DNA of 62,820 nt, filler included, from Chrysochromulina tobinii (GCA_001275005.1; 7 parts of 7 records of this genome joined end to end with filler, not necessarily neighbours in it); one strand, 5' to 3'; counted from the whole stretch's first letter, positions 7,980 to 56,540 are shown. Translations and numbers: made by a program. Notes: generated from the sequence alone by a model not told the origin.

Positions 7980-8012
<33 letters not shown>

Positions 8013-8770: not shown

Positions 8771-8828
8771 GATCGTGTGGACGTCGGCACACAGCGACGT
8801 CGCCGCGTGAGCGTCGCTTCGTGAAGAA

Positions 8829-8893
8829 ACAAGTCAAGTCAAGTCAAGTTCAAGTTCAAGTTGATCTTTTGAAGTCAAGTCAAGTCAAGTCAA
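8829..8893. repeat. (CAAGT)n microsatellite upstream of UTP13
   Basis: Runs of aagtcaagtcaagtcaagttcaag. Confidence 0.85.
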
Positions 8894-8937
8894 ACTGAGC
8901 ACACCTTGAACAATGCTGTTCAAAACAACGCGCAGCC

Positions 8938-9213
8938 GAGATGCTGCTGTTCAACACGACGACGGCGAAAGGTGCTCGCGATCTTTTAGATGATCTTGAT
9001 CTTAAAAGCGAAGTACACTCATTGAGTACACTCCAGCGTCTCCGTAGCGTCTCCGCGGGAGATCCGAGCTCAGTCACCGCGTTTACTGCTGTACGTCAAC
9101 GACTTTCATCCGCATTCGGAATCGGCGTGAAGCAAAAGCCATATAGGCGGAGCAGCGGCGCTCGAGGCAGCACGTTTCGATGCTCACGCCCCCGCGGGCC
9201 GCAGTCGACATTC
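8938..9213 (+). repeat. Direct repeat copy 1 (~275 bp), matching 11337-11612
   Basis: Shared blocks gctgctgttcaacacgacg...aaaggtgctcgcg and gtacactccagcgtctccg...cgtcaacgactttcatccgcattcggaatcggcgtgaagcaaaagccata...gcagtcgacattcga. Confidence 0.9.
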
Positions 9214-11083: not shown

Positions 11084-11336
11084 GCTTTCGGAGTTATGGA
11101 AAGAACATGAAATTTGTTTTTTGCATGTGAACATGCAACTTATCAGGGGCTTTTTTCGGCCTACAGGCGTGTATGACGCGGAGAGGTTACACGGCCTAAC
11201 CATGATACACCATACATGTACCGGTACCTTAAAACGCTTTAAGAGGGCAACCATCGACGAGAATCGCTTCGCAACGTTCACAACATCCTAGCTTAAGTAG
11301 CTAGTGAGCTGTCAACGCGCAACCGTAGAACCGAAT

Positions 11337-11612
11337 GAGATGCTGCTGTTTAGCTGCTGTTCAACACGACGCCGGCGGAAAGGTGCTCGCGCGAACGCAA
11401 TTTTGCCGTATGCCGTAGAATTTTTTCTATAGTCGCTAAGTATCGTAAAGCGATGTACACTCCAGCGTCTCCGCGGGAGATCCGGGCTCACCGCGTTTAC
11501 CGCTGTACGTCAACGACTTTCATCCGCATTCGGAATCGGCGTGAAGCAAAAGCCATAGGCGGAGCAGCGGCGCTCGAGGCACGTTTCGATGCTCACGCCG
11601 CAGTCGACATTC
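11337..11612 (+). repeat. Direct repeat copy 2, overlapping the last codons and downstream flank of the EDEM-like gene
   Basis: Aligns to 8938-9213 with small indels. Confidence 0.9.
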
Positions 11613-14600
11613 GACGCGCACGCGCTGTTCGCGCGCTTGTCGGGGCGGTGGCACGAGGCGCCGTGATGGGCACCGAGGCTGCTCACCTCTTGCCGCTGTG
11701 AGAAGATGGTGTGGAAGGGTTGCCAGCGCCCATCGGGCGTCGTCTCGGCGGCCTCGAGCTTCAGGATGCCGTCCCCATGGGCCCTCACGTTGATCTGCCA
11801 CGAGAGCTGGGGTGGGCCGCGCAGGTTCGTACCGATGCTACCGGCAGCTACCGGCATGCTCGTCATGCTCGTCATGCGCAACCCGCCGGGCTCGGACTGA
11901 GCGGGCTGGAGCACATCGAGGGTGATGGAGCGCAGGGACGGTGGGAGCTGCGCGAGGGCGGTGCTCGCATTCGGTAGCTCGTACGCGGACAGCGCCGCGT
12001 GGAGGAGCAGCTCGGGCGGCACGAGCTTCTGCGGGGTTTCGTCAGCTCCTTGGGCGAGCTCCTCTGACGAACCTTGGGTCGCGGGTATGCAGCAGTGGTG
12101 GTCGATGCACCCGCTGTGCCCCTGGGCGCACTCGTGCAGCATCATGTCGAAGCCGTGGCGGCAGCATGCCCCTTCCGGCCCGCAAAAGTGGCATGGGCCC
12201 GCCTTCTCCTCACACGGCCACCAGCAGTGCACGTGCAGGTTCTGGACGGGCGCTGTGGCCGCCAACGTTTGTGAGTCGTCACTCGTCTGTGTGCGCGCGG
12301 GCGGAGGCTCGCGTGGCCCGATCGGCACAGGCGACGAGGACGGCGGGCTGCCTGACAGGCTGCCGTCCGCAGCGGAGCGGACCCTATCCTTGTGAGTGTC
12401 GTACACCTGGTCGAGGCGCTCGCGCAACGCAGCGACCGCCGCATGGGGCAGTGTGAACAGTGAGGGCACCGGGTTCGTCAAGCCCTCGTCGTAGGCGGGC
12501 GTGGGCACGCACAAGCCGCGCGAGTGGCGCGCACGGGGCCATGAGGGCGGCCACCAACTCGAGTCATCCATGGGGGAGGATGACGAACCCGACGCGCCGT
12601 GTCGGGCATCGGATGGGGACCTTTGTCGACGCCTTTCCTTGGCAGCGGCCTCTGCGGCGGTGGGCGCGTCGGCGGAGGCAGGGGGCGGTCCGAAGGCGGG
12701 CGGCGGTTCCCCCGGCCCACCTGCCTTATTGGGACCACAAGGGAGGCCCTCAGGGATAGCGACGCGCGTGAAGCCGAGCGCACTCAACGCACCCAGCGCC
12801 TGGAGCAGATCACAGGGAGGTGCTGACGGGTCGGGTAGCATCACCGCCCACGCGGACGCGATCGACGTGCGTGCTGGCACGGCGGCCGGTCCGTTCTCGG
12901 CGGCGGCGGCGCCCTCGGCGGCGGCGGCGCCCTCGGCCACGAAGGCGGTCGGCCTCTCGGGCACTGGCCAGAGCCGCTGCAGCTCTCTCTCGACGTCCAA
13001 GGCTGAGCCGCATTGCTGCACGAGCACCGCCTTGCGCGGGATCCCATCCGCCGCCTCCATTGACGAAACGGACGGGATCCCATCCGCGAGCGCCTCCACC
13101 AGCGCCTCCTCCTCCTCCTCCTCGGCCGATCGTTTCGAGGAGCGCTTGCTGGCCCTCTCCTTCTTACGTCCGCGCGAGCGCCCCGTGCCCGACACGGCGC
13201 TCCCGGCGCGTCCACTCAAGCCCCGCGTGCCGAGATCAACCGAGATATCAGCCGAGATATCAGCCGAGATTGGCCGTCGCGAGGGAACAGGGTTCGCGGA
13301 CAGCGTGAGCGGCGGACCGTTCGTGTGCGGTAGCGCAAGGCTCAAGAGGTGCGTCGCTCCGCGCCACCTGTGGGGAAGCAGAGTGGGCGTCGTCGTGAGC
13401 ACTCGCATGCTCGGAGGCTCAAGAGGTGCGTCGCACCGCGCCACCTGACGTGGCCGCCCGATCGGCGGCTCCACTCGAAGTCAAGTCAAGGCAAGGCAAG
13501 TCGAATCAAGTCACGCCAAGTCAAGTCACCTGACGTGGCCGCCCGATCGGCGGCTCCACTCGAACTGCAGCCCGCATGTCGCGTTTCGAACGGCGAGCGC
13601 GATCACAACCGACTCGGCCACCTGCTGGCCCGTCGGTTTGGTGCTCGCGCCGGCGCTCGGAGGGTCGCTCTCGGGCAAGGCGACTGTCCACACCTGTGGG
13701 GAAGGGACCCGGGACGCCGTGGTGAGCACTTGCATGCCTGCTGCCCGCATCCTCGCAAGGCGACTGTCCACACCTCCGCGGAGAGCATTCACATTCACAT
13801 TCACATTCACATTCACTGTCCACACCTCCGCGGAGAGCGCATCCAACTGCTCGGCGGCCGTGGCACGCACACGTACACCGCGCGGGCCTGCAGAGGCGGG
13901 AGATCAGGGCGGGAGATCAGTGTGGATGTGTGAGTGTGTCATGCCATCCGAGGTATCATTGCTCATCAGTGCTCAAGGCGGGAGATCAGGGCGGGAGATC
14001 AGTGTGGATGTCATCCGAGCTGCAGCAGTGCCCACCTGCAAAGGCGGAGATCGAGCCGGAGATCTGGGCGGGAGATCAGTGTGGATGTCATCCGAGGCAT
14101 CATCAGCAGTGCTCACCTGCAAAGGCGGAGATCGAGCCGAGCGTCGCATGGCTCGGCTCTGCCGCGAGCATGATCATCAACTCTTGGGCGGCCTTTGCAG
14201 CGATGGCCTGCTGACGCTGCGACTCCTGCTGCTGCTCCTGCTGCTGCTCCTGCTGCTCCTGCTGCTGCTCCTGCTGCTGCTGCTGCTGCTCCTGCGGCGG
14301 CGGCGGCGGTGGTTGGCACTGCTGCAGCTTCTGCTTCCGCGTCTGCTCCTGATGCCGCTGTCGGCGCGACGACGGCGGCGGAGGCTCGCGAGGATGCGAC
14401 TGTGAATGTGAAGACGGCAGCTGTAAGGCGTGGCACACGAGGTGGGCTCCGGGCGGCTCGAGGCCCGCCGCCGCCGCCTCGGCTGCCGCGGCACGCTCAC
14501 GACGGCGCTGCAGCAGGAGGCTCGTGGCGACCGTCGCGCGAGATTGTAGCTCGCTCCTCTCGAAGCAGTCCGAGTAGCTCAGCCCCGCAGATCTGATGAT

Positions 14601-17251
14601 CTGACGAAGCCGGCTGACCGGCAGCTCGACGATCGGCAAGCCATGAGGCTCATGTGAGGGCAGCCTCGCGCTGGCCGACGCACCGCCCGACACGGCGCTA
14701 TGGCCGCCCGACACGGCGCCAGCACCGCCCGACACGGCGCCCTGACGCGAGCGGACGGGCGGCGATGGCGAGAGCTGTTTGTGCCGGCGGCGATGGTACC
14801 GATCGGCTTCGGCGCCGTGTCGGGCGACGGCCTCGGCCTCACCAGGCGCACTGGCGATCTCGAAGGATCTCGGCATCGAGATCCAATCGAGATTCAACAG
14901 GCCTTGTAACAAGCGCGTGGCCGTTGGCGGAGGAGGCGGCGGAGGAGGCGGAGGCGGCGGCTCGGCGGCCGGTGGCACCAAGCGCTCGCGCGAGGCTCGC
15001 AACTCCTCCTGCGCCGCCGTCAACTCGACGGCGTCGTCGTCGTCGTCGTCGGCGGCGGCGGCATCATCGTCGTCGGCGGCGTCGTCGGTGGCGTCGTCGG
15101 CGGCGTCGGCGGCGTCGTTGGCGGCGGCGCCATCCACGGAGGTACCGAGATCGGCACCGTGATGGTCACCTACTTCCGCCGCCGGTGTGGAAAGCGCGGG
15201 CGCCGTGATGGGCGGCTGCTTCGGAAACGCCGTGCTGATCGGGATGATATGGCCCTCGGTGGAGAAGACGTAGCCGGATGCATGCGTGTTGGGGAAGGCG
15301 TCGTCATCAAAGAGCAGGTAGAGATACTTGAGTGTCTCCGCTAGGAAAAAGGAGGGGGTGTGATCTTCGAGCGTCATGTCGAGCACCGACTTGACCGCGG
15401 CGAAGCCCGAGGGCGTACGCGCGATCTGGTTGAGCGAGATCACCATCTCGCGCCCCATCTCGAGGTACCGGTCGCTACCGGTCGCCCGGTACAGCGCGTA
15501 GGTCGATTCGGCCAGTTCGGGGCGCAGGGGATAGTACGCCATTGAGGAGTGCACGGCGGCACGGGCCACGTCATATCGTTCAGGCAGCACGCGGAATCGA
15601 GACCAGAGGCTGTGCGATGGCCACGCACACCAGTCAATGGACATCAGAGGCCATCAGAGGCACTCCGTGGTCATCAGTGGCACGCTGTGGCACTCCGCGG
15701 CACTCCGCGGCCATCGCACCTGTGGAACGCTTCCTGTGTCTGCGCGGCCGCGGCCACGTCGCCAGCCAGCACTTGCAATGCGGGCCAAAACGCCTGCAAC
15801 GAGTCGAAGGAGGCCACCTCGGCTTTGCCCGCGTACATGTTGGCCTCGCCGTACCAGGGTCCTATTTGCAAGTGAGCGAGGGCTGCGCTGTACGACGCGT
15901 TCCAAATTTGGAATAACTCGGGCGTCCCGAAGACGAGGTAGCTCTTGAGCGCATACCTGCGTGGCAATCAGAGGCCATCAGAGGCCATCAGAGGTCATCA
16001 GAGGTCATAAGAGGTCATCAGCGCTCATCAGCGCTCATCAGAGATCATCAGAGATCATCAGATGGTCGCTCTTGAGCGCGTACTCGTAGAACGAGTCGAT
16101 GCCCGCGCCGATGCCCGCCATCGGGTTGCGCCAAGCCCCACTCACGACGTCGAGTGTGTTGCCGAGTAGGTTGCGTGGAGAGCGCTTGGACCAAAGCAGC
16201 CGCAGCGCGCAGAGCGCGGCGTCCTCGAAGCGAGAGTCGAGCGTCAGCCGCGAGAGTGTACCTGCATGGCGGCCAGTGGTGGTCAGTGGCAATCAGTGGC
16301 GATCTGTGGCGATCAGGCACCATGAATGGAAATCAGTGGCAATCAGTGGCGGCCAGTGGTGATCAGTGGCAAACAGTGGCGATCTGTGGCGATCAGGCAC
16401 CATGAATGGAAATCAGTGGCAATCAGTGGCGGCCAGTGGTGATCAGTGGCAAACAGTGGCGATCAGCGGCGATCAGGCACCATGAATGGCAATCAGTGGC
16501 AATCAGTAGCAATCAGTGGCGGCAAGTGGCAATCAGTGGCAATCAGTGGCAATCAGTGGCAATCAGTGGCAATCAGTGGCAATCAGTGGCAATCAGTGGC
16601 GAGGAGCGCACCGAACTCGAGGAGGAGCGTGCCGATGCCTGCCGTGCACTGCTCGCGCTTCGCATTGTGGTGTGGCACGCCGCCGCGCAGGTGCACAAAG
16701 GCGCGCGGCAGCTGCGAGCAGCCGGCGTCAAAGGCGGAGAGCAGACGCTCGCCGAGATCAGCCGCGAGGCGAAGCAGCTCGCCGCGGTAGCCGCGCATCG
16801 TCAGGTGCCTCGCGCCCTCAATGTGGCCGCTCGCGAGCAGGTGTGCAGAGAGCAGCCCGCCGAGGACACGGATGTTGGTCTCGAAGAGCGAGACCTCCAC
16901 ATCCAGGTCGAAGGACACATGCTCGCTCACCCACCGCACGCCACGCTCGAACTCGCTCACGTTCCCGGCGATCGCAAGCGTGTCGAGCGAATCGATGAGA
17001 GTGAGCGCCACCCCATGGTAGCCTTTTCGTGTCGGCGTGGCGGCGCCGAGCTCAACGAGCGAGTCGGTGTGCGTCTGGCTGAGCGGCCGAAGCTCGTCGT
17101 GCGGAAACGCGTACCGCATGTAGCCATCGTACGTGTGGTAGATCATCTCGCGCACTGTCTCGCGGAGAGCGTGCCTCTCCTCGAGCGGCATGCCACCGCA
17201 GCAGCAGCAGCTGGCGGCGACGACGGCGGCGCGCATACGTCGTGTACGCAT
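11510..17251 (-). CDS. EDEM-like GH47 alpha-1,2-mannosidase with a long C-terminal extension. Predicted exons 17251-16612, 16261-16084, 15956-15720, 15609-14117, 13887-13826, 13693-13530, 13367-11510
   Basis: GH47 motifs YMRYAFPHDELRPLS, LIDSLDTL, FETNIRVLGGLLSAH, GIGAGIDSFYEY, YPLRPELAESTY, SFFLAETLKYLYLLF, FSTEGH. Six GT-AG introns keep the frame; exon sum is 4632 nt, divisible by 3. Confidence 0.85.
16262..16611 (-). repeat. Intron filled with (CTGATTGCCA)n-type minisatellite
   Basis: Plus strand shows aatcagtggc arrays with a higher-order unit; GT at 16611, AG at 16262. Confidence 0.85.
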
Positions 17252-26060: not shown

Positions 26061-26168
26061 CTTCGGGATCCCGTACCCTATGTAAACGACGAAATTAGAT
26101 AGGGAAAAGCGCTTGGCGAGGCCCGTTCGGGCGTAACTTTGACCGAGCACTGCTCCGGGAGGCGCTCT

Positions 26169-26373
26169 GGGAGCGGGAGGCGGCAGGGTCAGGTTCGCAG
26201 GGGGCGGCGATTAAAATTTAAATGTGTTCGGAGTCGGCCGCGGGGAGCGGTTGGCTCCGGGGCTGCGGCTGTTGAGATGGCCACGGATCCGGTCGTCGCG
26301 TGGTCGTGCGGTGCAGGTGCGTTGGTGTGGGTTGGCTTGGTTGTGAGGTTCGTCTGTGTGATCCGTGTGCCCG
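26169..26373 (+). repeat. Dispersed ~205 bp non-coding repeat, copy 1 (copy 2 at 41521-41726)
   Basis: Shared gggagcgggaggcggcagggtc.ggttcgcagggggcggc ... gagtcggccgcggggagcggt ... gggttggcttggttgtgaggttcgtc.gt.tgatccgtgtgcccg. Confidence 0.85.
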
Positions 26374-26598
26374 TGTGCGCCCGTGTGTGTCCCCTGTCCC
26401 GGCTAGCGGCTTGTCCCGGCTCGCCCCGGTGTCTTTTCACCGGAACACTGGGGGAAGCCGAGCATACCCCTAATGCCCTCCCCGGTAGTTGGGGGTCAGG
26501 AGAGACCGAGGTCGTGCAGAAGGCGGTTGTGTTTCACAGCCGATGGTTCTAATTCACGCCTCGAAGACAGGGGACGCCATTACAATGCCGTCGAGGGC

Positions 26599-29067: not shown

Positions 29068-30207
29068 ATGCCGACCTGCCTCGCCACGTGGACCCACACG
29101 CCGCCGCGACGGTACACGAACAACATCTTCCACCAAGCAGAGCTCGTGGTGCCCATGCTGAGCGCTGCTCTCGAGGCTGCGCCAAAGGCTATCTACTGGC
29201 AATTCACCTTGCTCCCGTGGTCACGTGGCATGCTTGAGATGATGAAGGGCGTGAAGGTGATCGCGAGGAACGTGACGCCACCGGCGCATTGCAAGCTCTT
29301 TGGCCGCAGCAGTGGGCCTGGCAATTTTTTCGGCATGTACAAAAGTGCCGCAAGGCCTGTTCAACGGCTGCGTGAGGCTGTCTGGAGTGCGTGCGGCGTG
29401 GAGGAGCATCGTTCAGTGACGGTGCCGCCGGTGCGCATCGTATACATGCCTCGGACGGGCAGCGGGCTGCAGTCGGGTGTATGGCGCAACTTTGCGGAGA
29501 ACGCGTCGGCGCTGCTCCGCGCATTGCGTGTGGCGCTGCCGACGGCGACGCTGCATGTCGCGGGCACGCCCGGTGGCGACGTGCCGGTCGTCGAGCAGGT
29601 GCGGCTGTGGGCCAGCGCGGACGTGCTGCTCACGCCCAACGGCGCGCACTTTGTGAACGCACTCTTCATGGCACGCGGCGCCGTGCTGCTCGAGGGTGTG
29701 CCGTGGGCCATGCGGGGCTATCCAGGCCAGCCAATGATCACACGAGCCTCGGCTGTGAATCACGTTCGGCTGCACTCGAACAGGCCCCCGCCTTCGCGCG
29801 AGCTCGGACCGTTTGCTCAGATTGCCAACGAGCGCGCGTGCGAGCAGAACGAGCTCTGCAGGCGACGCTACCGCGACCGCGCCAACCTCCACGTGAGTGC
29901 CGCTCAGATGCTGGCCTTGCTAGGACCAGTGCTCCTACGGCTCGAGTGCGAGGACGTGGCTGGCTGGACCAATCCGTTTGGCAAGACGTGCGCCGATTAT
30001 GCGACGCCGCTCCCAGCGGCACCGCGCGGCGACAGCTCGCGCGAGGCGGGCGGCTGGTGCGAGGCGGGCGCCCTCAAGCGCGAGGCAGCTTGGGCAGGTG
30101 GAGTCGCCTTTGGCTGGCCCGAGAAGAGTTGCTGCGCGTGTGGGGGCGGCACGGGCGGGGGTGGTTTGACTGGGCGACAGGGTGAAGGTGGGCGCCGTGC
30201 ACGCTAA
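29068..30207 (+). CDS. Glycosyltransferase family 61-like protein with a C-terminal Cys-rich module
   Basis: NNIFHQAE; EQVRLWASADVLLTPNGAHFVNALFMARGAVLLE; CEDVAGW...CADY...WC...CCACGGG. Confidence 0.75.
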   Translation: MPTCLATWTHTPPRRYTNNIFHQAELVVPMLSAALEAAPKAIYWQFTLLPWSRGMLEMMKGVKVIARNVTPPAHCKLFGRSSGPGNFFGMYKSAARPVQRLREAVWSACGVEEHRSVTVPPVRIVYMPRTGSGLQSGVWRNFAENASALLRALRVALPTATLHVAGTPGGDVPVVEQVRLWASADVLLTPNGAHFVNALFMARGAVLLEGVPWAMRGYPGQPMITRASAVNHVRLHSNRPPPSRELGPFAQIANERACEQNELCRRRYRDRANLHVSAAQMLALLGPVLLRLECEDVAGWTNPFGKTCADYATPLPAAPRGDSSREAGGWCEAGALKREAAWAGGVAFGWPEKSCCACGGGTGGGGLTGRQGEGGRRAR

Positions 30208-30342
30208 ATGAAGTTCGGAAACATCGTCGCGTTGTTTTGAGCCTTTTTGGAGACTGTCTGGGCATGTGATGAGCCTCAGTCCCATTGTCCCCGAGACGAG
30301 CTTGGTGCACGAGAGCACGCACACACACGCGCCGCGAGCGCA

Positions 30343-33101
30343 ATGGACTTCGTCATGGACGATGAGATGGCGCAGCGCTATAACAAGCTGATGATTTGGA
30401 ATGCGCGGCAGCGCGCTGTCGTTGCTCGCTTTGCTGAGCGCTCGTCTGCCGAGGGCATGTTGGCCGCCACCATCTGCAGCCCCGTGCACACCTGGTCACG
30501 TCCTCGGCAGCCAAGCACAGCTCCAGCTGTGCTCCAGAGTGGCGGTTTGGACGCAGACACGCGGACTTGGGACGAGGGTGACGACGAGGAGGAGCGGAGG
30601 GCGCGGTCAGACCTGGTGGCCGAGATGGATGCGGCGGCGGCGGAGGTGGCGGCGGAGGCGGCGGCGGCGGCGGAGGCGGAGGCAGCGGCTTCGAAGTTTG
30701 CAGCCGATGCTGCATCATCGATGGAGCCAGCAGCGCAGATGGGCGACGGCGAAGGTCGAGCTGCAAATGAGGACACACGGACGTGGGACGAGGGTGACGA
30801 CGAGGAGGAGCGGAGGGAACGGAACGAGCTGGTGGCCGAGATGGAGAAGGAGGGGTCCTGGCCACCAGCCTCCATCTCCATCTCGGTATATGCAGAGGCG
30901 CCATCGGCGGCAGCGGCAGCGGTGGCAGCGGTGGCGGCGTTGGTCTCCAAACTCGAGGCAGCGAAGGCGGAGGCGGAGGCGAGAGCAGCCAAGCTATTGG
31001 TAACGGCGGCTCCGAAGGCAGGCGAGGATGGCGGTGGCGGTGCGAGCGGGGAGACGCGGACGTGGGACGAAGGTGACGACGAGGAGGAGCAGAGGGAACG
31101 GGCCAGGCTGGTGGAGGAAGAGGGTAGCAAGCACGAGAGCGAGGAGAGCGAGAGCGACGATGGCTTCGTCAACGCGCCGGCGCCGCCGCCTACGACGAAA
31201 TCGGTCGTCCACGGCCTGGCCATTCCCGGCCTGTCGCTCGGCAAGCTGAAGCAGATGGTCGTTCCACCTGACGAGGCCGAGTCCAAGGCAGACAAGCTAC
31301 GCCGCTTTGCGCCCATCTGTTCGAAGATTCTCGAGGGGCTCTACCTAGGCTCGGATGTCGTTGCACGCTCCCGCAGCACGCTGCACGCACACGGCATCAC
31401 TCACGTGCTCAACTGCGCCGGCGTCGCGTGCCCCGAGTACCACGCGCCCGACAGCACGCTCACCTACCGTACGCTCTTCTTATACGATTCCCCACATCAG
31501 GAGCTCGGGGCAGTGCTCTACGAGTCTCTTGCCTTCGTGGCGGACGCGCTCGCGTCGGGCGGGAAGGTCTTCGTGCACTGCCAGCAGGGCGTCTCACGCT
31601 CGGCGTCGCTCGTGATCGCGTACGTCATGTGGACACGTGGCCTCAACTTCCTTGCATGCAAGTGCTCACCACGGCGCCATCACGTCCCCACAGGTATGTC
31701 ATGTGGACACGTGGCCTCAACTTCCTTGACGCCCACACGCTCGTCAAGGAGGCGCGTGGCGTGGCCGAACCGAATGCGGGCTTCGTGTGTGCGTTGGTCG
31801 CCTTTGGGAAACGGCTGCGTGCACGTCCACTCACCGCGCCGTCGCCCACGGCCGCCAGCGCGGATGGTGGGAGGACGCCACGTAGTGGCGGCAGCGGCGG
31901 CGGCGGCAGCAGTAGCGGCGGCGGCGGCGGCGGCAGCAGTAGCGGCGGCGGCAGCAGCGGCGGCGGCAGCAGCGGCAGCCAAGAGGTGCCGGAGATGCGA
32001 GTGTACCGGATGGTGCCTCACTATAACGGCCCCGCCCCGCGAGAGGTGGCGCTGTCGTGGGCACGTGGGCACGTGGGCGATGCGACAGCCGAGCTCGGTG
32101 AACATCTCGACCCTCGCTCCGCCTTTGTGGTCCATCTGCCGCCGAGGAGCGCCGCCGCTGTGCCAGGCGCTCACAGTCTGATGCCCAACGGCAGCAGAGC
32201 TGCAGCAACCGCAGGCGCTCACATCGCGTCAGCCGCCGAGGCGGAGGCGGAGGCCGAGCCGAACGCCACGGCCGAGGATCCTCTGGCAGCCTATCGTGGC
32301 CAGTGCGTCGTGCTGTACACCTCGTACGCGAGCAACATGCTCTTCGAGGTCGCGTGGCGCAAGCTTGAGACCCAATTCCAGGGCATGGGGCTCAAGTATA
32401 CGGCTATCGACGGCGCGGCGCCGGAAGCGAAGGCGGTGCGATCCCTACTTTGGGCGATCAGCAACGACCGAAGCTACCCGCAGGTATTTGCATGCCGTCA
32501 TGGGGGGGCGTGCGAGTTCCTCGGCGGCGCAAGTGAGATGCAAGCACTCTTTGACTCGGGCGAGCACGCGCGCCGTCTCGCCGAGTACCTCGAGCTCCCA
32601 TCGGAGATCCCACAAGGGGGCGGGCCCATCCGCGAGGTGGGCGGCGTTGGCAGCGGCTTGGGCTCCTCGAATGCAGGCGCATGCTTCGTGTGGGTGGGCG
32701 CGCAGTCGTGCGACGCGTACCGGCAGGCGGCGCTGCGTTGGGCGGCGCTTCTCGAGCGTTTTGAGGGAGCACCGCCTGCCCATGAGGAGGCGCAGGGGCG
32801 CGAGAGTGAACCCTTCTGGCGTGCCGTGAGCTGCGGCCATGCCGTGCCAGGCCATGCCTTTGTTGCGGTGCGCAAGGCGACGCCGCTCGCCGCGTACGAC
32901 GCCGAGTACGGCCCCGGCATCGCGACCTTCCTCCCGAAGCCTGTGCCGGTGCTCTCTCTCTCTCCAGCCGAGGGTGCGCCGTCGCAGGCCGAGGGGACTC
33001 TGGTGCGCGATGCGGCCACGGGCGACATCGTCGGTCCTCAGCAGCGCTGGCATGCGGCGCTAAACGCCCTCTTGTTTGTGCACCACCTCTCCTCGTACTG
33101 A
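30343..33101 (+). CDS. Dual-specificity (MAP kinase) phosphatase, plant MKP1-like, with gelsolin-like and glutaredoxin-like domains; intron 31620-31693
   Basis: LYLGS, HGITHVLNC, catalytic VHCQQGVSRS. Splicing restores IAYVMW...VKEARGVAEPNAGF. Gelsolin-like LDPRSAFVVH / CFVWVG...QGRESEPFW. Confidence 0.88.
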
Positions 33102-33403
33102 GATTGTACTGAGTGAGGTGGGGACTCGATGCTCGAAGCTGCATAGGATTCCTAACGTACCGGTGTCCGGCGGCGATTGGTTTTGGCTCGTTGGCTTTCT
33201 CGTCAGCGGAGCGGCGTATTATTTGGGCGAGAAGCCTCAGCGTGCACACGTCCGCCGTATGTTTCCCGTTTACTTGCATTGAGTTTTTGAATGTATTGAG
33301 CAGAAGCATGAATCGAAGGACAGCTGGTTCCAAATGTTTCTTTGCCGTTACGATTCATGTTTCTGCTCTTTGGGTTTTGTGGCTGGCTGCGGTGGCGGCG
33401 CCG

Positions 33404-36400
33404 ATGTATTCTGCACGATCTGCATCGCTCCGCCTGACGCTTGCGAAGGAGAAAAAGCAGGAGAGGAAGGAGGCGAGAGCCCTGCGGATCGCCGCTCTCC
33501 AAGACAAAGACGAAGAAGCGGCAGTGGAGCTCATCGACTACGGCAAAATCGCGTTTACACAACACAACTCGGGGCAACCTGCAGAATACATTCTTGCCAA
33601 GGGCGCCACGGACAAGAAGCTGGTCGCCAAGCAGATCATTGCCGCATGGAAGATTACGGAGCCGGGTGTAATGATCCGTGCCGCGGGCTCAGTCAACCTG
33701 AAATTGCTCCAGCACCTCGACTCCGACGACGTCGAGAACATCCTCCAAGGCGTGCTGGCGACTGCGGCTAGGACGGGTGGGTGCCTTCAATCGAATGGCC
33801 TCAACTTTGGCCTTGCGAGCCTGCTCGGAGCGTGTTTTGCACGCATACGTCATCGCTGCCCTGTACCTCTCGTGGGCGTCCTCAGCTGGGCGGCAGTCCA
33901 AAACCGCGAAATGATCGTGAGCGAGGAGGATATCGACAACGAGTTTGTCCCAAACAAGGGCCTCAAGCACAAGTACTTGGACGGCGCGCCAGAAGAAGGC
34001 CTGGGGCGCTACTCTCTGCAGCCCGCGCACACCCACTTCGTCTTCCTGAAGGCAGACAAAGCCACGCTTGCGGCCGCGGGGAACACTCCTGCGGAGCAGC
34101 TGCGTAACGCCCGGATCCGTGCGTTCAAGGCCGCGCACGCCGTGGAGAAGGAGATCGCCAACGCAAGCACCGGCCGTTTCATGCCCGCGCGCGTCCTGGT
34201 CATCTTCGGGGGAGATGAATTCACGCTCAAAGAGATCGACAGTTACGTGGACGGGAAGCATGGAAGGGTGCTGCTCCTCGCTGCTACGGGCGGGCTGGCA
34301 CAGGCTCTCGGTCAATTCATGAAGAAAGGCGTCATCCTACCGGACTGGGAGCCGCATCGTGAGATGTTTGAGAAACTGATGTCGAAGAACCACGACGACG
34401 GCGTCTCGCCCAAGATGACCCCCAATGGTCGCGACTCGGCCTTGGAAGATGAGGACTGGAAGTACATCGCCATGACTGAAGTGACCGCAAAGGAGGGCAT
34501 CATGCATGCGATCTTGGACCTCGCGATGGAGCAGTGCAAGACGGCTTCCGCGAAAGTCGCAGCCGCGGTCAAATGGAATCACGCAGAGCGGCTGAACGAT
34601 CTGCTGCTCGGGACGCCGCCCTGGGACAAGGATCGTCCTACCTTGCTCAAGGAGGCGCTCGAAGATTCGCTCAAGCTGAAACACACGGACTGCGTGAAGA
34701 TCTGCATCCACCACGGGGCGCCGGTGGCAAAACTCGACCTGCTCGACCTCTACGACATGCTGTACGACTCTCATTCCCCGCCAATCGTCTATCTCTTCAA
34801 GGGGCTCCAGAAGCCGTCAGCACGGCTCGAGCAATGGCGGTCTCTGGGAATGAAGGTCGGACGGGATACTTCCGTCAACCTCGACGACCCGATCTACGAG
34901 TTTTTCCCAGTCGAGGCTTGGAACTTCATCGGTGCGATCACGCCTGGCCTCTGCAACTACTGGCGAAGCAAGATCGGAGACGTTGTCACGCAGGGGCCCC
35001 TGCCTGACGGCGGTCATGGATACATGAAGCTCGCTGAGGAGATCGACGTGAAGAAGATCACCGGGCCGAAGTGGATCGACATCTACCTTTGGGCCATCCT
35101 CCTCGGAGAGACCGAACTCGCCCTCGCCCTTCTGCCCGCTTGCCGCGAGCCTATGCGCGCGGCCGTGATCGGTGCGGGGATCGCCAAGGCCATGGCGAGC
35201 GCTCTGCCGCTGCACGCAGTGACGCTTCAAGAAGCGGCCGAGGAACACGAGGCGTACGCAATCAAGCTGCTGGACATGTGCGAGACTTTCGAAGATGCGT
35301 GGCGCATGCTGATCACCAAGTCCACGACGTGGACGAGGCCAGTGCTGCACCAAGCTGTGGCGGCGAACCTCAAGAAGTTCGTCTACCACGTTCACTGCCA
35401 GACGCTTGGTGACGAGTGGCTCTATGGCCGTGCCGACTTCGAGAAGCCCGCGGTCATGCTGAATGGCACCGCCTTCACAACCGCCAGGATGCTCCTTCAT
35501 ATGGCCGTGCCGTTGGATCCACCCTTGATGAGAAAGATGCTCAAGGTTGTACCTTCACCAAGCGGAAGCGACGCGGACGTCTCTGGCATGACTCCGAATT
35601 GTTGGGACTATTACACAATCCCCGCGGTGAAGCTGCTCGTACGCCTCGTCATGCACTTCCTCTATACGCTCTTGCTTTCGTCCGCCACCCTGCAAACACC
35701 GATGCCCTGGCTTCAGGAAGGTGCGCGCGACCGCGCTGCTGCACCCTGCGCACCCTCACCGCGCGACCCTTGCATTTCGTCTGACCCCACAGCCGTGTAA
35801 CGGCCGTTCGCCTCGCAGTGCATGATCTTATGGGGCTCGTTCCCATCGATTCTGCCGCGCACCATGGCGGCGGCTTGGAGAACAGCAAGCTCGACGCTAT
35901 TCTATGGATCTGGACCATTGCCTCTTGCCTGGACGAATTCTACAAATATGCGTTGAACCCAAAGACGTTCCAGGCATTGGGGTGGAACCTTTTCGACTAC
36001 CTGACGTTTACAGTTGTTCAGATTGGGTTGTCGATGCGCTTCGTGACCCTCGAGCGCTCCGTGGAGATTGAATGCTTCGCAGTGATCCTGGTCTGGGTCC
36101 GCATTCTCAAGTTCCTCCAACTCGATTACAACCTTGGTGTGCTGGTCATCATTCTCATGCGCATGACCAAAGACATTGTGGTGTGGGGCGTGGTGAACGC
36201 GATCGTGCTGATCGCATTCACCGTCGCCTTCGTGAGCATCGCCGACCCATACGTCGTCGAGTCGTCGGGGGGGGATCCGATGACGGCCCCATTGTGGGCA
36301 ATGCTCGGGGACTTTGACGTCCAGGAGTACCACGACTGGAATCCGTCGGTTGGCAAGACGATGCTCTGGCTTTACGTTATCTTCTCCAACGTCGTGCTTG

Positions 36401-41371: not shown

Positions 41372-41520
41372 GCCGTTTTGCAAAAGTGAACGCTTGTGAA
41401 TGGACGTTTTGATGTGTTGTGAATGAATGGACGAGTCGAGCCGCCGGGGTTGGGCCGCCGGGGTCGAGCCGCCGGGGTTGTCCAGTGTGTGTCCCGGCTC
41501 CCCCCGGTGTTTTTAAACTT

Positions 41521-41726
41521 GGGAGCGGGAGGCGGCAGGGTCGGGTTCGCAGGGGGCGGCCTCTTCTGAGTCGGCCGCGGGGAGCGGTCTGCTCCGGGGC
41601 TGCGGCTGTTGAGTCGGCCGCGGACATCCGGCCGTCGCACGGTCGTGCGGTACGGGTGCCAATTGGCGGGTGCGGTGGTCTGGGTTGGCTTGGTTGTGAG
41701 GTTCGTCAGTATGATCCGTGTGCCCG
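41521..41726 (+). repeat. Dispersed ~205 bp repeat, copy 2
   Basis: Aligns with 26169-26373; lies just upstream of the RING gene. Confidence 0.85.
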
Positions 41727-41991: not shown

Positions 41992-44900
41992 CTCGTCGAT
42001 CTCGTGCAGGGTTCGGACCTGCTTGTTGTCGCTGATGTAGCCGATCAGGCCGGTGAGCAGGCCCTTACCGCCAATCCAGCTGAGGCCCACGCCGAAGTGG
42101 CGTTTGGCTGGCTTGCCCATGACAATGTTTGCTCCACGCGGGCCCAAGTGGCAGATCCAGGTGACCAGGTTGCGCACCGCGCGCTCGACGCCGACCGTGA
42201 TGTTGCACGGGTCGTCCGTGTACCAGAACGACTTGGAGAGCGCGCACTCGGCGCGCCCAGTCAGTGCGGCGAGCGCCTCTCGCTGAATGCACCAGCCGTC
42301 GAAGAGGGTGTTCGAGGCGCGCAGTGCGATCACGTGGGGGACGTCGGAAGCGGCGCAGAGGCGGTCGTGCTCCTCCCCGATCTCGGTGTTGAGCCGTTGC
42401 GCCCAGCACGACGAGGGCGGGGTGCCCATCGAGAGCACACGCTCCAGGTAGTCGGCCATGGCGGGCGAGTGGTCTCCGGCGGCGACGGCCTCGGGATCGA
42501 GAAGGGCAATGAGCGCATCACGCCGGGACGCGATGGAGATCATGAACTGGAAGAAACAGTCGGCCTCGTCGTCCTCCTGCGTCAGCACGGGCTGGTGCAG
42601 CAGCGCGCCAGCGTGGGCAAGGATGCAGACGCTGAGCATGAGGTCGACGAAGAGCCATTTGAGCTCAGGCGGGTGCCGAGGGCGCAGCGCGTGGGCGCTG
42701 ACAGCGAGCTCGAGCGCCTGGCCGGAGAGGCCGTCGGCTACAGCCATCGCGCGCGCCTGAGAGGGAGTGGTTGAGGATGCCGCGAGGCGCAGCTGCGGAC
42801 CCTGGAGGAGGGCGGCCATCGGCTGCTTGCGGAAGGCAGGGGAGTGGCGCAGCCAGGAGGGCCTGCTATTGGAGGCACGGTGGATGGTCTTGGAGTCGTC
42901 CCAGCCACACGATACGCCGACGCTGTGAACCACCGTCTTCTTGTCGAGGGTCATGCGCTTGCGCCTGGGGGCCTTGCCGTCGACAATGCGCCGGTCTCGA
43001 CCAGGGTCGGAAGTGCGGTGCACCGTGCCGTTGGCGCCGAACACGCACGGCAGGCTGTGGATGCGGTAGCCCTCCGGAAACAGCTTGACGTCGTATCGGT
43101 TGAGGTTCGTGAGCCGCAGCATCTCTTGATGGACTGACCGGAGGCCACGCTTGTAGATCGACAGCATGTGGTCTTGCACGATCGTGATCGGCGGGCGCTC
43201 CGTCAGGTACGAGAAGCCGTGAGTGACCACCGCACAGCGCAGCCCGCGGTCGATCGAGCCAGACAGGAAGTTGTCGAGGTACTGCACGTTCCAAATCGGC
43301 GGAGGGGGCTTGGAATGGTCACGGATGACGATCTTCCCGTCGATCTCGTCGAGAACGTGGCCCGCCGCCACAAGCTTGGCAGCCCATGGTTGGTAGCCTT
43401 CAGGTCCGAAGGCGAGGAATCGAGGGGCCGGGGCCTCCGTCATGTCACCCGTGTGCTGCAGGCTCCACAGCAGGCGTTCGTGCAGGCGCGAGCGCGCCAG
43501 ATGCAGCTCGCGAGCGTACTCGGGGAGCAGCGCATGCCGCTCGAGCGACGTGGCCCACGCAGGGACGAGCCGCGGGTCCGGAGCAGGTGGCAAGGGCGCC
43601 ATCGGGTCTGTCGGCACGGGCACTCCATGCGACGGGAAGGGCAGAGCAGCCAGGCGGGGGTCGTCGGCACGGTAGCACGACTCGCGGAGCGTCTGGTTGA
43701 TCTCGTTGAACGCAGGAGCACGAACGGCGTCGTGCCACTCGCTCAGCGTGTCCCTCACGTCGGCAGGCAGCTCGGGATCGGCGCAGACACGCCGGATTTC
43801 CGTGCGCAGCGCTTCCGTGGTCGCCATGGCCTCGGGCACCACCTCAGTGGCCCAGGACATCTTGGTGGCTCCTGAACGCACGGTGCCGCCGGGAGGGAGG
43901 ACCGCGGTGAGTTCGAGCGCGCCGTACGTGATGCGGGCGTGCTGGAGGACCTCGGTCGGTCTCGACATCTCGAGCAGGCCGGTCCAGGCCCCTCCCATCG
44001 CAAGGTACAAGCGCCCAGACAGGGCATTGGCGGATGCCCAGGCCAAGGTCGGCCCGGTGTGAGCAGCGAGCTGCGCAGGGGTGTCGACCCTGCCTGATGC
44101 GAGGTCAGCAGGCGGCGGGTCCGCCACGAGGGACGCGACGACCAACAGCGGGCGCTCACCCCGATGGTCGAGCGTCAGCTGGTAGTAGGCGAAGATGTCA
44201 GTGCGAGGCGCAAAGAGAGCATCGACCCACGCTTGGGCGGGCTGTGAGCACGAGTCACGGCTGTCTGTCGCGCGGCGTGTACCAAAGGCGGCACCGCCTC
44301 CCGGGAGGCCGACGCGGGGCTCGGCGCCGTCGAAGCACAGGGGGAGGAGCAGGACGGCTCCGGCCGGCGCGAGCTCGGCGTCGAAGAGGGGGACACCAAG
44401 GACGTGAGGGCCAAGGCGAGGTTGCGAGGGCGCAGGTGGCAGCGTCGAGCTCGGCGGTTCGAGGAGCGTGCTGAGAGCTTGGCACAGCTGTACGGCAAGC
44501 CCACGGGGAATGCGAGCAGGGCGGTTCTGACCACCCAAGCGGATCAGCGGGTAGCGGTGCTGCCCGTGTGGGTGAGTGCAGATTGCCAGCGAGAGGTTGC
44601 CCATGAGCGGCTCGAGCTCGGGCGAGAATGCCATCGTGTCGTACCCTTGCTCGTACATGCCGGCGTCAGGCCCGCCGGGGGCAGAACAGTGGGCAAACGT
44701 GACAGAGTGGGCATTGGCGGAGGCGACGAGGCGGCGCGTCCACGACATGTCCCACCACGACCCGTGATGGGCTGTGATGCCCGAAGGGTCCCAGAAGCGC
44801 CCGCCGAGGAACGTCGCGTCGTGCCGCGGCGGGGGGTGCATGGCGACAAGGAGGCCGTCTCGCAGCACGACCCGCTCGGCGAGCGTCGCCCCACGCTGGT

Positions 44901-45528
44901 ACACGCGTATGGCCTCGCGGAGCTCCTTGCGCGCCCCCGCGGGAAGATCCCGCTCGCGGAGTCCGTCATGATTGTCGGGGCCCTTAAAGAGCACCGGGGG
45001 ACCTGGGGCCGTGTCGTAGATCCTCGAGACCGAGCAAGGGGAGCAGGGAAGGCTGAGGATTACGGCCCCGAAGGCGCCCTGCTCGCACCGCTCGAGAAGC
45101 TCGAGGTGAGTAGGGTCATGTAGCAGGCCACCTGCGTCGCGACCTGCCGCGATCTCCACCGTCTCGATGCCTTGGGCGGCGAGGAGGCTTTTAAGACTCG
45201 CCGCGCGGTCGCATGCGCTCGGGCACAGAAGCAACACCGCTCTCGGCCTTCTCGCCGCCGACGTGGGGCGGGCAGGAAGGTAGCGCGGCGCGTAGATCAT
45301 CCCCGCGTGGGCCAGGTCAGCGGCCAGACTCAGTGAGCTCGGGTCGGTCGAGCTGGCGCTAAGCAGGGCTAGGAGGTTCGCCCGTGTCTCAGCAGGGGGG
45401 GCGTCCCCGCCACGCCGAAGATCGTGATCGTGCGGCGGCGGCTGCTGCCCCGCGTCGTCGACGACCGCGCCAACAGCGGCGATTGGTGGCGCCAGTAGCA
45501 GCGGCGGGGCGGAGGGGACCGCCCCCAC
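41992..45528 (-). mobile_element. DIRS-like retrotransposon pol ORF (partial, gap-bounded): DNA cytosine-methyltransferase-like domain plus reverse transcriptase
   Basis: RT motifs EDDEADCFFQF, VLSMGTPPSSCWAQR, WYTDD (42211-42222), LSWIG. Upstream DNMT-like segment GAVILSLPCSPCSVSR...VTFAHC...CTHPHGQH...ARIPRGLAVQLC. No termini or tyrosine recombinase visible. Confidence 0.75.
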
Positions 45529-46314
45529 GCCCAGCCCCGGCGGGAACGGGAGCCGCGCGCGAGCAGGGAGGAGACCGCCGCGAACCGTCAGGTCGGTGTC
45601 GTTGACCAGCGGTGGGGGGGGCTCCGTGTCCCCGTTGCCCCATCTGAGGGACGGCCCGGGGANNNNNNNNNNNNNNNNNNNNNNNNNNNNNNNNNNNNNN
45701 NNNNNNTTAATTAATTAANNNNNNNNNNNNNNNNNNNNNNNNNNNNNNNNNNNNNNNNNNNNAGATGCTCACTGCTGCCCCGACCGAGGCCCCGCGGCAG
45801 AAACAGAGCCTCGGTCGATTCGAGCATGGGTTATCCAGGAAGCAGGGACCGAGGCGAAAGCGCTGCCTTGAGCCGAGGTCGAGTGTTTTGAGTGCGGAAA
45901 AGAAAGCACAGGAAAACGACTGGGTATCCACCCCTATCTCCACGCGCCGCGCCCGGCCATCTAGTCTCCACGCGCCGCGCGCCCCGCCATCGTCGCCTCC
46001 CCGCCTGGTGCGTGTGCGTAACCCACAGAGGTTGCTGCCTCGCACCGATGCCGGCGCGGCTGCGGCGTGCGCCGCAGGAGCTGCGCCCGCCGCCGACCCG
46101 CCCGGCTGCGTGGGAGGCGTCCGTAGGTGGCGTCCGCGGTTTCCGCTGGCCGGGTCCGGGTGCAAGTTTTTGTATAGAGAAAGAAAAGAAAAGCGGGTCC
46201 CCAGCCCTCGCCCCCTGGGCCCAATATTCGTCGGAATTCCGAGTGCACTAACCCTTTCTTCGCCGGCGAGTGGGAACGGAAATCAAGGCGGGCAGTACTC
46301 CGATCATATCCGTG

Positions 46315-49536: not shown

Positions 49537-52500
49537 CTACTGCTGGTGTTGCTGCTGCTGCTGCTGCATGGCCAGGGACAGACGAAGCCGTTGGAGCACA
49601 TCTTGCCCATGCTCTATCCACTCATCAAGTGCGTGTAGTTGCCTAAGCTCTGGCGCCTCTGTCTTCAGTGGGCCAAAGAGATGAAGCCCAGCCATCTCGG
49701 CAAGGGCGAGCTCGGACTTGCGCATCTCAGCAGCCTGCTCATGACGCATTTGTAAGGTGAGCCCAAGCTGGGAGGCAATCGCGTCGGACAATTTCACTTG
49801 CACCAACTGCGCTGGGCCCTCTGGGACGCATCGAGTCGTCCGTGAGCCCACAGGTGCCGTGCCGCGATGCGGGGTAGACTCATTCGCTGATGGCGGCCGA
49901 GTCACTGTCCGCGGTCTTTGCGTGAGCCACTTTAGCTGGTCGCGCTTTCGGTGTTGGTCGAGCTTCCAAAGACATCGAAGTAGCAAGTCCTGTGGCAGCT
50001 TTCGGAGACGAATGCGATTAACGACACGACCAGCGTTCATCACGAACTGAAGTGTTGCGAGCGTGCCAAAGACCTCCTCATCTGCGTCTCCGCATCCGCC
50101 AAGGACGACCGTGCAAAAGTCGCCCACGAATAATTCACGTAGCAAACATGCAAGCGTTGCCTCGCTCCATGGCACTCCCTGCGTGGCTCCTTCAGCCCTC
50201 GCGGCAACGCACGCGCCCAGCACAGCAAGCGAGCGAGAAACCGAGCGTGGGCTCTTTGGAGTAGCCGATGCACACATTTGGCGGCCAAGAGTGTCGCCAC
50301 TCGCGATGTCAACGAGCACGAGCCGCGCGGGCCGAGCTGGTGGCTGCTGCGCAACGTTGGCAAGGCTGCTGCCACTGGCACTTACAGTCAGGGTCAGGAT
50401 AGTGTGCGTTTGTGAATCGAGCGTGCCGCGGCTGGTCGCGCGAAAAGCAACACGCAACATGTTCGCGGCCTCCTCCAGTGAACGGATGCAACGCTGTGCC
50501 GCCCCTTTCAAGTGCGCGATGCCGCGTTCCTCGTCATCGCTTACTAGCACGGCAGCTCCACTGCGCAGCAGGTCGAAGCACTCATCACCGTAAATCTCGA
50601 TGAAGGAGGCGTGCACCTGCACGTCCTGTGCCTGAGCTTGCGCTGTGCTCGCAGTGCATGGCGCGGGTGACGGCACACAAGACGTCGCCGTGCCACCCTG
50701 CAAGCAGGCTTCAAACGCGCGCATCGCCATGCCCCACTCAGTACGCGGCGCTCCGAGAGGATCAGATCTCGCCGCTTCAGTGCCGTACAGCGTGTACGTT
50801 TTGCCCGTCCCTGCTGCGCCGATGCATAGCAGTGCACAGTCGAGGCCGTCGAGTATGCCCCCTACGAGCGGTTCGAGCACGCGAGAGTACACGCGTTGTT
50901 GACAGGCGTTGACCTCGAATACCTCGCTTAGCTCGACGCGGATCGTCTGCGGGGCGATCCCCTTGGAAATGGGTTGTGGAGACGTGGAGATCGGCCTTAT
51001 ATCGGCGTGATTCCCTTCCCACGCGATTCGTCTGCTACGCCTAGGCCGGACTTCAAATGACGTTCGCGGGCGAAGACGTACGAACGTACGCACGCGCCAC
51101 TGTTCCGGGCGCGCCGCATCTATCCAAGCCGTTTGGCGTGCGGCTACAGTGGCCGCGGAGATCGCCCGAGCAGTGCGGTCCACGATATCATCAACGGAGC
51201 GTCCAATGTGCGTCAGTGCGTCGAGTAAACTGCTGATGCAAACGGCCACCTCAAGATCAAGGCTGCCCGCCTTGGTGGCTCCGCCCAACGGTGGCTCGAC
51301 CCTGACTCGCTGCAGCACAAGAATCAGCCGCGACGTTGCGCTGACAAGATGGGATCTCTCGAGAGCCCACGAAACTTCGCAGGGCATGGACTCCGCAGCC
51401 AGAAGTGTGGCCTGCAGAAGTCGGAGGAGCTGGGCCTGCCCGGCTGCGCTTGCCAGAACTTCCGCAAGAGCAGGAGGCGTCAAGGGCACTGGAAGGCCCA
51501 TCCGCGTGCGAGCAAATTCATGCACGATCTCAAGCGCCTTGACGAGCTCGCCGGACTCAAGCGCCGCCACCGGAAAATGCACAGGGCGGGACTCTTGCAG
51601 GTGCGCTTTCGGCACAGCTCCGTGCTCACTCGCTGCAGTCGATGATTTGCGCAACGTTCCTTCCATGTGCACGTCTGGCAGCTGCAAAACGGGCAGGCCG
51701 ATGAGGCGGCTTAACCGCTGTCGGGACGAGCCAAGGAGTGTAGCCGCCGCCACCGCAGCAGGGACGACGGCTGAATCGCCACTGCCAGTGCTGGGAGTCT
51801 CATCGGCTGCAACTTCAAAGGTGACCTCGATGCACGCGCCGTCATAGGGCTCGCACGCGCCATGTATCGGCGGTTTGTGGGCTGGAACTCTTGAGCGGAC
51901 GAGGCGGGCTGCGCGTAGCTCGAGGCGTTCGGTTGACACGGCCATCTCGTCAGCCAACGCCGCACACATTACCCCACCGCCAACGCGCTGGAGGTCAGCA
52001 AACGTGCACTGCAGATGCAGGCTGATGAGGACAGGCTCGCCAGGGAATGGTTTGTCAACCGACCGCGCATTAAACATCCGGGTCACGACGGGAAGCAGCA
52101 GCGATTTTGTTGCATCGCACCGCCGCTGTTGGGCGTCAAAGCTCCCCGAAGCTGTGCACGGCGCGACCTTAGCACCCGAGTGCAGAAGGTCAAGCTTTGC
52201 AAAGAAGCCGCTCACTTCGTCGTGTATGATCACCACACCATCCGCAATGCGCACCGCTTCAGGGGCTGCCGGCAACGCTCGGCGGCGGCCAGCTTCGAGA
52301 GAGCGGGTGGCCAGTTCGCGTAATTCTGCAGTCGCCACAGTCAATGATGTATTGGGGGTTGGTGACCATGTCGAGAGCTGCGCTATGACGGGAATGCGAA
52401 AGTGTCGTGCGGCATGCTTAAGGTCGGAACGCGGTGCATACAGGCCGCTAGATATGTGCCGGAGAGCGATGAGAATGAGCTCCGGCCTGCTCACAGAGCC

Positions 52501-54973: not shown

Positions 54974-55065
<92 letters not shown>

Positions 55066-55596: not shown

Positions 55597-55906
55597 AACT
55601 GGAGATTTATGGATAACTCATCCATAACTTGGGAAAAATGTAGTTGCCGGAAAACACCGAACATTGAAGAGATTGCTTTTCAACAAAGCATTCCCTTTAC
55701 ACCACCAGAGTCGGCCTCGTGGCTGCACACCTCGAAACGACCTTTCGAGACCACACGCACTCGACGAGCACACTGTGTGCCTATCTGAAGCTCCAGAGAG
55801 CTCAGCAGAGGCACTCAGAGGGCACTCAGAAGCAATCAGAGGCAATCAGAGGTCAATCAGTGGTCAATCAGTGGCAATCAATGACAAACAGTGCGATCGA
55901 GCTGGC

Positions 55907-56440: not shown

Positions 56441-56540
56441 NNNNNNNNNNNNNNNNNNNNNNNNNNNNNNNNNNNNNNNNNNNNTTAATTAATTAANNNN
56501 NNNNNNNNNNNNNNNNNNNNNNNNNNNNNNNNNNNNNNNN

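Follow-up and report, generated by a model that had tools for sequence, protein, structure and literature searches.

The window analysed here is a stretch of 62,820 nucleotides from Chrysochromulina tobinii (GCA_001275005.1), in which parts of seven records are joined with filler. In keeping with a haptophyte, one protein of the window has its nearest named relatives in Coccolithus braarudii (71%) and in a record with a truncated name starting 'Phaeoc' (62%). On its forward strand lies a gene for a dual-specificity phosphatase, with exon 1 at positions 30343-31619 (covered over 30933-31619 by an RNA contig), a 74-nt GT..AG intron at 31620-31693, and an exon 2 running from 31694 to the stop at 33101. 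Removal of the intron yields a product of about 894 aa in one open frame, which continues through CQQGVSRSASLVIAYVMWTRGLNFLDAH and matches the Pfam family DSPc with an E value of 4e-19. The initial annotation had proposed that excision restores the phosphatase sequence, which holds, and had placed the intron and its parts at coordinates that are exact in the sequence.

The intron is a composite. Its first 35 nt (31620-31654) repeat the 35 nt that open exon 2 (31694-31728) and provide the GTACGT donor, the two copies differing by a single mismatch, TAC versus TAT, which is synonymous (Tyr). The following 39 nt (31655-31693) constitute a patch shared with other introns and comprising a branch-like CTCAC (31665-31669), a CACGGCG block, a variable C/T-rich tract and CCCCACAG. 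Judged by its likeness to the consensus, the adenosine of CTCAC is the putative branch point. At the joint, the pentanucleotide CCTTG (31650-31654) is a microhomology common to the end of the duplication and to the family sequence just 5' of the core, and a 12-bp palindrome, CTTGCATGCAAG (31651-31662), marks the 5' edge of the shared patch. We term this build, in which the duplication supplies the donor and the patch the acceptor, type A; type B is the reverse, and in AB copies both splice sites stem from a duplicated AG/GT. The phosphatase gene contains no further intron and the nearest family copies in the window are 18 and 25 kb away, so the patch came from afar. Summed contig depth over the patch reaches 8602 in comparison to ~45 alongside, indicating a high copy number but not a copy count. 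A stretch of exon 1 (30906-30981) is likewise high-copy, with a bin depth of 1065 and many loose contig ends, and the peptide TRTWDEGDDEEE occurs three times in this exon.

Contigs of three RNA runs and one DNA run were aligned to 30200-36200. In one RNA contig (X13 record 11), 30933-31619 is followed directly by 31694-31879 in the record's own numbering, without a differing letter; the contig thus derives from the window's own allele and omits exactly bases 31620-31693. With its GT..AG ends and exact removal from RNA, the intron presents as U2-type, and the splicing predicted in the initial annotation is observed. Among the contigs listed, the main intron is bridged in one of the three RNA runs, and no bridging contig is listed for the other two. 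In a second gene, covered by an alignment of 56530-59930, retention of any single one of five introns introduces stops in every frame. Here, X13 record 4 bridges 58048-58127, X14 record 10 crosses 57079-57155 with an overhang of just 13 nt, and two further introns are skipped in all three RNA runs.

Three phosphatases with 98.2-98.7% identity (P0045-P0047, contigs of 5-8 kb) read through the intron site, as do all 15 listed members of a cluster at 91% identity (contigs up to 25 kb). Three others (P0042-P0044, 99.7-100% identical, 17-22-kb contigs) begin downstream of the site, as expected if an unspliced intron had broken the gene call. Judging from these proteins, the phosphatase site appears to be empty in close relatives. 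At the DNA level, an 81-nt intron whose duplication of 33 nt is perfect (33/33) is present at the metagenomic locus L089 and missing from L011 and L046 in flanks that are 97.9% identical. These loci are an empty/filled allele pair, of the kind the initial annotation had suggested looking for in relatives. The number of tandem units also varies between alleles (L023/L058 and L044/L063).

The 16-mer core of the family occurs five times in the window, four times exactly and once with one mismatch, always on the coding strand of the host gene; the chance mean of 1.23 allows up to three mismatches and therefore overstates the expectation for near-exact matches. According to the initial annotation the same cassette recurs at four further sites in units of 74-80 nt. 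The lengths measured are 74, 77, 80, 77 and 80 nt, and the core does recur at each site. On the reverse strand, a GH47 gene harbors a 77-nt type A intron with a 30-nt duplication (13368-13444), and a second type A intron of 80 nt (13694-13773) has a 19-21-nt duplication followed by filler; both are supported by the frame, which is open to a stop at 11510 once these two and four neighbouring introns are removed. Also on the reverse strand, the 77-nt intron at 57079-57155 is type A, with a 32-nt duplication containing five mismatches, and is backed by the short RNA overhang and by the frame. The fourth site (58048-58127, reverse strand, core copy at 58057-58096), bridged in RNA, has the opposite build: this 80-nt type B intron takes its GT from the 5' half of the shared intron, continues into the core, lacks CCCCACAG and is completed by a 13-nt repeat of the upstream exon's end, which supplies the AG.

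Four further reverse-strand introns in the window share the duplication-plus-filler build with other fillers. At 57720-57801, decamer filler replaces the core and a 36-nt copy of the upstream exon gives the AG (sequence and frame); at 15957-16083, the filler is again a decamer and a 20-nt copy of the downstream exon gives the GT (sequence); at 13445-13529, an intron with pentamer filler abuts 13368-13444 without an intervening exon, and at 14036-14116 a duplication over an AG/GT site encloses another filler (both from sequence and frame). In 218 kb of metagenomic loci we counted 32 such core-less cases in sense, against 21 in an antisense control that is not clean, as many of its cases are mirror readings. 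The core cassette is therefore one of several patches.

Several side observations concern intron organization in the window. Duplication-built introns are stacked in pairs at 13368-13529 and 13694-13825 (reverse strand), with an internal AG/GT junction, no exon between them and fillers of pentamer and hexamer repeats; such pairs would need recursive splicing, or form one long intron. Decamer arrays occupy many introns (15600-16600, 55800-55880 and 56800-59870) and read TGAT... on the coding strand where checked by eye. Introns of Emiliania huxleyi contain similar repeats of 10-11 bp. A second recurrent intron 3' end in the window is CCTCCCTCATCAG. By eye, introns are clustered: two window genes have nine or more short introns each, and others are long single-ORF genes (Utp13-like, 5954-8833; kinesin, 49540-55617). 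About one intron per gene is given in the portion of PMC4580454 available to us. Between scaffold gaps, 41995-45660 (reverse strand) encodes a 1222-aa ORF, with look-alike stretches near 26150-26420 and 41500-41720; it had no Pfam or phage match and is possibly part of a mobile element. Direct repeats of ~250 nt (about 8920-9210 and 11330-11610, by eye) flank a GDSL-like ORF of lower GC content (9440-11287).

To place these introns in a larger collection, a pattern scan was run on 4 of 64 parts of a metagenome collection, which returned 134 loci and gives an estimate of ~2100 stretches. The exact-core set comprised 170 distinct copies (L136 excluded), of which 11 lay at edges and 31 lacked a pyrimidine-rich AG. 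A donor-anchored copy of the following exon's start was present in 80 of the remaining 128 testable copies in comparison to 1 of 631 shuffled pairs, which bears out the link between long, variable duplications and the cassette made in the initial annotation. Allowing up to two core mismatches gave 245 distinct copies. After 26 edge copies were dropped, the remaining 219 divided into 110 type A, 12 type B, 18 AB, 1 weak and 78 unassigned; this classifier was run without a shuffled control, its B and AB rows include many tandem units (by eye, ~5 type B and ~5 AB copies are clean), and alleles of a copy that come from separate samples do not count as independent. All but 6 of the 78 unassigned copies have at least one of three features: a repeat, a tandem core or a 3' site. 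Of the two matches to viral contigs, L135 looks like host DNA, and L136, which looks like a chance 16-mer, was dropped from all counts.

Type A copies have a median length of 78 nt and duplications of 8-53 nt (median 26). The part shared between them begins 14-53 nt inside the intron, and in type B copies it stops short of the 3' end. CCCCACAG forms the 3' end of 78 of the 110 type A copies, and some tail subfamilies are common to several loci. The full palindrome CTTGCATGCAAG is found in 32 of the 245 copies and its 8-nt centre in 108. By reading, about five AB copies have core-only patches (L003, L012, L027, L029 and L066); here the duplication spans AG/GT or AG/GC, so that neither patch end is a splice site. 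Type B copies, among them 58048-58127 and L061, reveal a complete parent intron of ~72 nt, consisting of a GTACG-like donor, TGATTGCCAC-type decamers, the palindrome with the branch core, a C/T tract and CCCCACAG.

The copies sit in sense orientation in diverse host genes, which answers the question of orientation relative to host genes raised in the initial annotation. Pfam matches were obtained for 13 of 47 sense frames and for none of 47 antisense frames. A codon model assigned 75 of 98 copies to the sense strand; it was calibrated on its own training genes only, and the Pfam result is preferred. In 53 of 57 multi-copy loci all copies lie on one strand. With the intron removed, the reading frames on its two sides match in 80 of 98 cases, and phase counts of 47/25/26 show a bias toward phase 0. 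Terminal inverted repeats, described as not obvious in the initial annotation, were not apparent in any of the 110 type A copies, where the best end-to-end inverted match was at most 5/8 nt.

The joints and the relatedness of copies bear on how the patches were acquired. The 25 copies with perfect duplications have 24 distinct tails; young copies are thus not clones. The 110 type A 5' joints comprise 83 with filler, 6 tandem overlaps and 21 direct joints, and 15 of the direct joints show a microhomology of at least 2 nt against an expected 19%, the window intron having 5 nt. Pairs of copies from the same locus share core variants more often than expected (21/80 versus 9.3, p=0.001). Split by assembly set, the values are 20/76 versus 8.4 in one set and just 1 of 4 pairs in the other. 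Identical variant sets are not enriched within loci (3 versus 1.8 expected, p=0.28), and tail similarity of at least 0.8 was seen in 4 of 155 neighbour pairs, two of them tandem units. Filler could be traced to its own locus in 14 of 28 cases versus 87 of 279 controls, a weak signal. In individual cases the template can be named: the linker, core and tail of the new intron in L089 are identical to an intron ~450 nt downstream, as read in L011, and the linkers in L014 and L050 likewise come from a downstream neighbour intron.

Rare products depart from the intron form. In the DNA-methylase gene of L074 (764-950), a 54-nt in-frame insert is copied from an intron 380 nt upstream, and a second in-frame insert of 57 nt is antisense; both lie between direct repeats and neither is exactly removable by splicing. 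The upstream template contradicts an idea we had considered, that type A templates always lie downstream because a cryptic donor and a neighbour's acceptor are circularised, which three cases fit. In L087 (1-90), the patch is antisense up to the palindrome TTGCATGCAA and sense beyond it, and lies inside a duplication spanning CAG/GT. The introner-like family proposed in the initial annotation stands as a repeated, spliced and young family. Its single fixed 3'-splice cassette is unsupported, because the patch varies in which piece of a longer intron it represents and is often related to neighbouring introns, and because 5'-half, core-only, antisense and unspliceable in-frame forms, as well as other repeats, exist. 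As a separate observation, transversions between the intronic and exonic copies of type A duplications run from purine to pyrimidine in 45 cases and in reverse in 15 (p=1.3e-4); this pyrimidine drift of the intronic copy could reflect selection against exonic enhancers or biased synthesis.

The explanation we favor, at a little better than an even chance, is break repair with template switching, which copies existing introns between duplicated ends, selection keeping the spliceable products. It builds on what is directly observed, namely the architecture, splicing, allelic presence and absence, sense orientation, variable patch ends, microhomology, relatedness of neighbours and rare antisense or unspliceable products. 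A staggered break or a pair of nicks would give rise to the duplication, and synthesis-dependent end joining of a polymerase-theta-like kind would copy the patch from an intron already present, frequently a neighbouring one of that gene. In this process synthesis would exit the gene via microhomology, copy part of an intron and return upstream, duplicating the stretch in between. Selection would retain products with GT, branch site and AG ~65-95 nt apart, or in-frame inserts. Every survivor would then serve as a new template, so that the family could amplify without a transposase of its own while eroding to the branch core, and recombination between the two repeats might either remove the intron precisely or turn it into a tandem array. 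Of the two origins offered in the initial annotation, repair of a staggered cut fits the products better than a retro-type insertion, both remaining interpretations.

What speaks against break repair is that nearly all copies are sense and intron-forming. With blind repair and later selection, raw events would have to occur at a very high rate, and no non-coding scars were evident in the loci from the 4 of 64 collection parts scanned. Purely local templating is opposed by the lack of any other intron in the phosphatase gene and by the fact that most neighbour introns are not close matches and identical variant sets are not enriched, and the sharing of variants between neighbours could also stem from later gene conversion.

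The sense bias and the exact AG end are explained better by RNA-templated insertion, which we nevertheless judge unlikely overall, though a serious competitor. Here, an excised intron RNA (lariat, linear or circular) or a pre-mRNA would be attached by its 3' end, through joining or annealing, to a nick in a gene under transcription; a borrowed enzyme would reverse-transcribe it, and end joining would close the other side. The product would have a variable duplication, an exact end at the AG and a 5' joint that is truncated and sloppy. The 110 type A copies do combine an exact 3' end with a sloppy 5' joint, and the family has a strong sense and genic bias. Duplications start at a donor-like GT in 56 of 110 cases in comparison to 52 of 350 background GTs, and three traceable templates (L089/L011, L014 and L050) lie downstream in the same gene. 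Precedents exist in how linear group II introns retrohome, with an exact 3' and an error-prone 5' junction (PMC3280974), and in proposed reverse splicing into R-loops and spliceosomal intron circles (PMC11146597), as far as the available parts of these papers go. Extra steps would, however, be needed for core-only and 5'-half patches, for the antisense insert and upstream template of L074 and for the strand flip in L087. Patches also run past the branch adenosine, where a lariat is expected to stall reverse transcriptase, and copies showed no poly(A) tail. Mismatches are spread evenly along the duplication, at a rate of 0.060 at the first exon bases versus 0.057-0.081 further in; this shows no enrichment at the first exon bases and leaves the carriage of source-exon bases into the new exon, a further candidate, unsupported.

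A SINE-like non-autonomous element, or one of unknown class, with one or few masters moved by a non-LTR retroelement and long variable target-site duplications, is improbable. The conserved core with its CCCCACAG end and the tail subfamilies found across loci would suit a master, and target-primed retrotransposition produces variable duplications with 5' truncation. Type A copies display both, together with an exact 3' end, whereas types B and AB do not. The differing tails of 24 out of 25 young copies and the variants shared by neighbours are hard to reconcile with a master, as are the insertion of either half or of the middle alone and the 32 sense cases in which other repeats fill the same architecture. 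No reverse transcriptase or transposase domain was found in 47 flanking frames or 22 window ORFs, a tiny share of the genome. Nothing in the window reached the Rfam gathering score, and the type B intron had only chance-level matches (E 1.3 and 8.7). The fold of the family sequence is weak (-10.5 kcal/mol, a value without shuffle control), and copies end in CCCCACAG with neither a poly(A) nor a simple-repeat 3' tail. Among classified introners, the non-LTR share is ~5% according to the accessible portion of PMC12130899.

It is very improbable that these are old introns whose 5' halves were later overwritten by exon copies, the empty alleles being exact losses through recombination between repeats. 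Exact deletion between direct repeats is easy, and tandem-unit number does vary between alleles, but the duplications are perfect or nearly so, as in L089, they begin exactly at the intron boundary, and in the 15 listed proteins of the 91% outgroup cluster the reading frame continues across the phosphatase site. An assembly artefact at a repeat can practically be dismissed: none of the DNA contigs listed covers all 74 nt of 31620-31693, because the patch is high-copy, yet DNA contig X1 record 2 follows the window letter for letter from exon 1 up to and including 31653, and the same build occurs at more than 100 loci in numerous assemblies, some of them shared unchanged by different assemblies.

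Thus, 31620-31693 is a real, spliced and young intron belonging to a large family, and represents a variant form of intron gain. Returning to break repair with template switching, a more far-reaching proposal, which we make tentatively and rate somewhat below an even chance, is a transposon-free intron generator, in which gene breaks are mended by a duplication of 10-50 bases and a patch copied from an intron, such that introns breed half-copy introns. If this is true, the direct repeat present at birth can erase or multiply each intron, and such families escape introner screens that require end-to-end similarity; the process might then be a hidden origin, of general importance, for new 'sourceless' introns and for the oriented decamers repeated in haptophyte introns. 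Where most new-intron sequence originates is an open question, and a potential source was found for few introns in the Daphnia study. In this family the birth of each intron can be read from the intron itself: the duplication marks the target, the patch can lead back to a template intron, and strains that are 98% alike hold both filled and empty alleles. DNA-repair and RNA-templated gain are therefore directly testable in natural populations.

Among the closest known systems, introners resemble this family in outcome. As far as the available parts of the introner papers show (10.1101/2022.06.06.494994, 10.1101/2020.10.14.339549, PMC12130899 and PMC11282704), those of Micromonas, Aureococcus, Symbiodinium, Polarella (classes 4/5 and 6/8/10) and a Chrysochromulina sp. 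MAG are likewise repeated families of new introns that carry one splice site and take the other from a duplicated target, with flexible recruitment and a phase-0 bias, and the Chrysochromulina family likewise has no inverted repeats. Their duplications are short and fixed per class (3, 4, 5 or 8 nt; in Chrysochromulina 4 bp, carrying the 5' site), in contrast to the 8-53 nt described above. Introner similarity reaches both intron ends, whereas here host sequence unique to each intron makes up about half of it, the ends of the patch vary, young copies differ from one another and neighbouring introns are related. Set against the definition of Gozashti 2022, shared sequence occurs at many unrelated sites (134 loci, 245 distinct copies) and gain is recent with empty orthologous sites (L011/L046 versus L089), but similarity does not come within 10 intronic bases of both splice sites; the published screen, which requires similarity at both ends, would likely miss these chimeras. 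Neither terminal inverted repeats nor a short fixed target-site duplication, the marks of MITE-type introners, are present. About 72% of introner families are mechanistically unclassified according to the excerpted text of PMC12130899. Our search of titles and abstract beginnings returned no haptophyte report of this architecture; introner supplements might contain the full-length form.

Group II retrohoming and reverse splicing share the sense bias, exact 3' end and error-prone 5' end, but long duplications of exon sequence, patches made of half an intron and antisense products do not feature in the available portions of PMC11146597 and PMC3280974. Staggered-break end joining in mouse cells yields tandem duplications linked by microhomology, with occasional templated inserts (PMC5730883, in the part available). 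The resemblance extends to nearby templated and inverse inserts; there, these are described as mutational scars and not as a route that makes or spreads working introns. New introns in Daphnia are likewise polymorphic and flanked by direct repeats left by staggered breaks; their fill is a mosaic and a site can go through more than one round. Both a direct repeat of the adjacent exon at the opposite intron end and a polymorphic site are found here. The exon-intron repeats of Daphnia measure 4-12 bp, much shorter than ours, and the source of most inserts was not found, whereas the fill here is drawn from introns already present, a common pool that makes the products a family. In intron gain by AGGT tandem duplication, as far as the accessible part of PMC3443670 describes it, both splice sites come from a duplicated AG/GT without foreign insert. 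AB copies resemble this in having both sites duplicated, but a branch-site patch lies between the copies, and most cases, including 31620-31693 with its acceptor from the patch, take only one site from the duplication. What the present family adds to the Daphnia and AGGT gains is a self-renewing pool of intron-derived patches.
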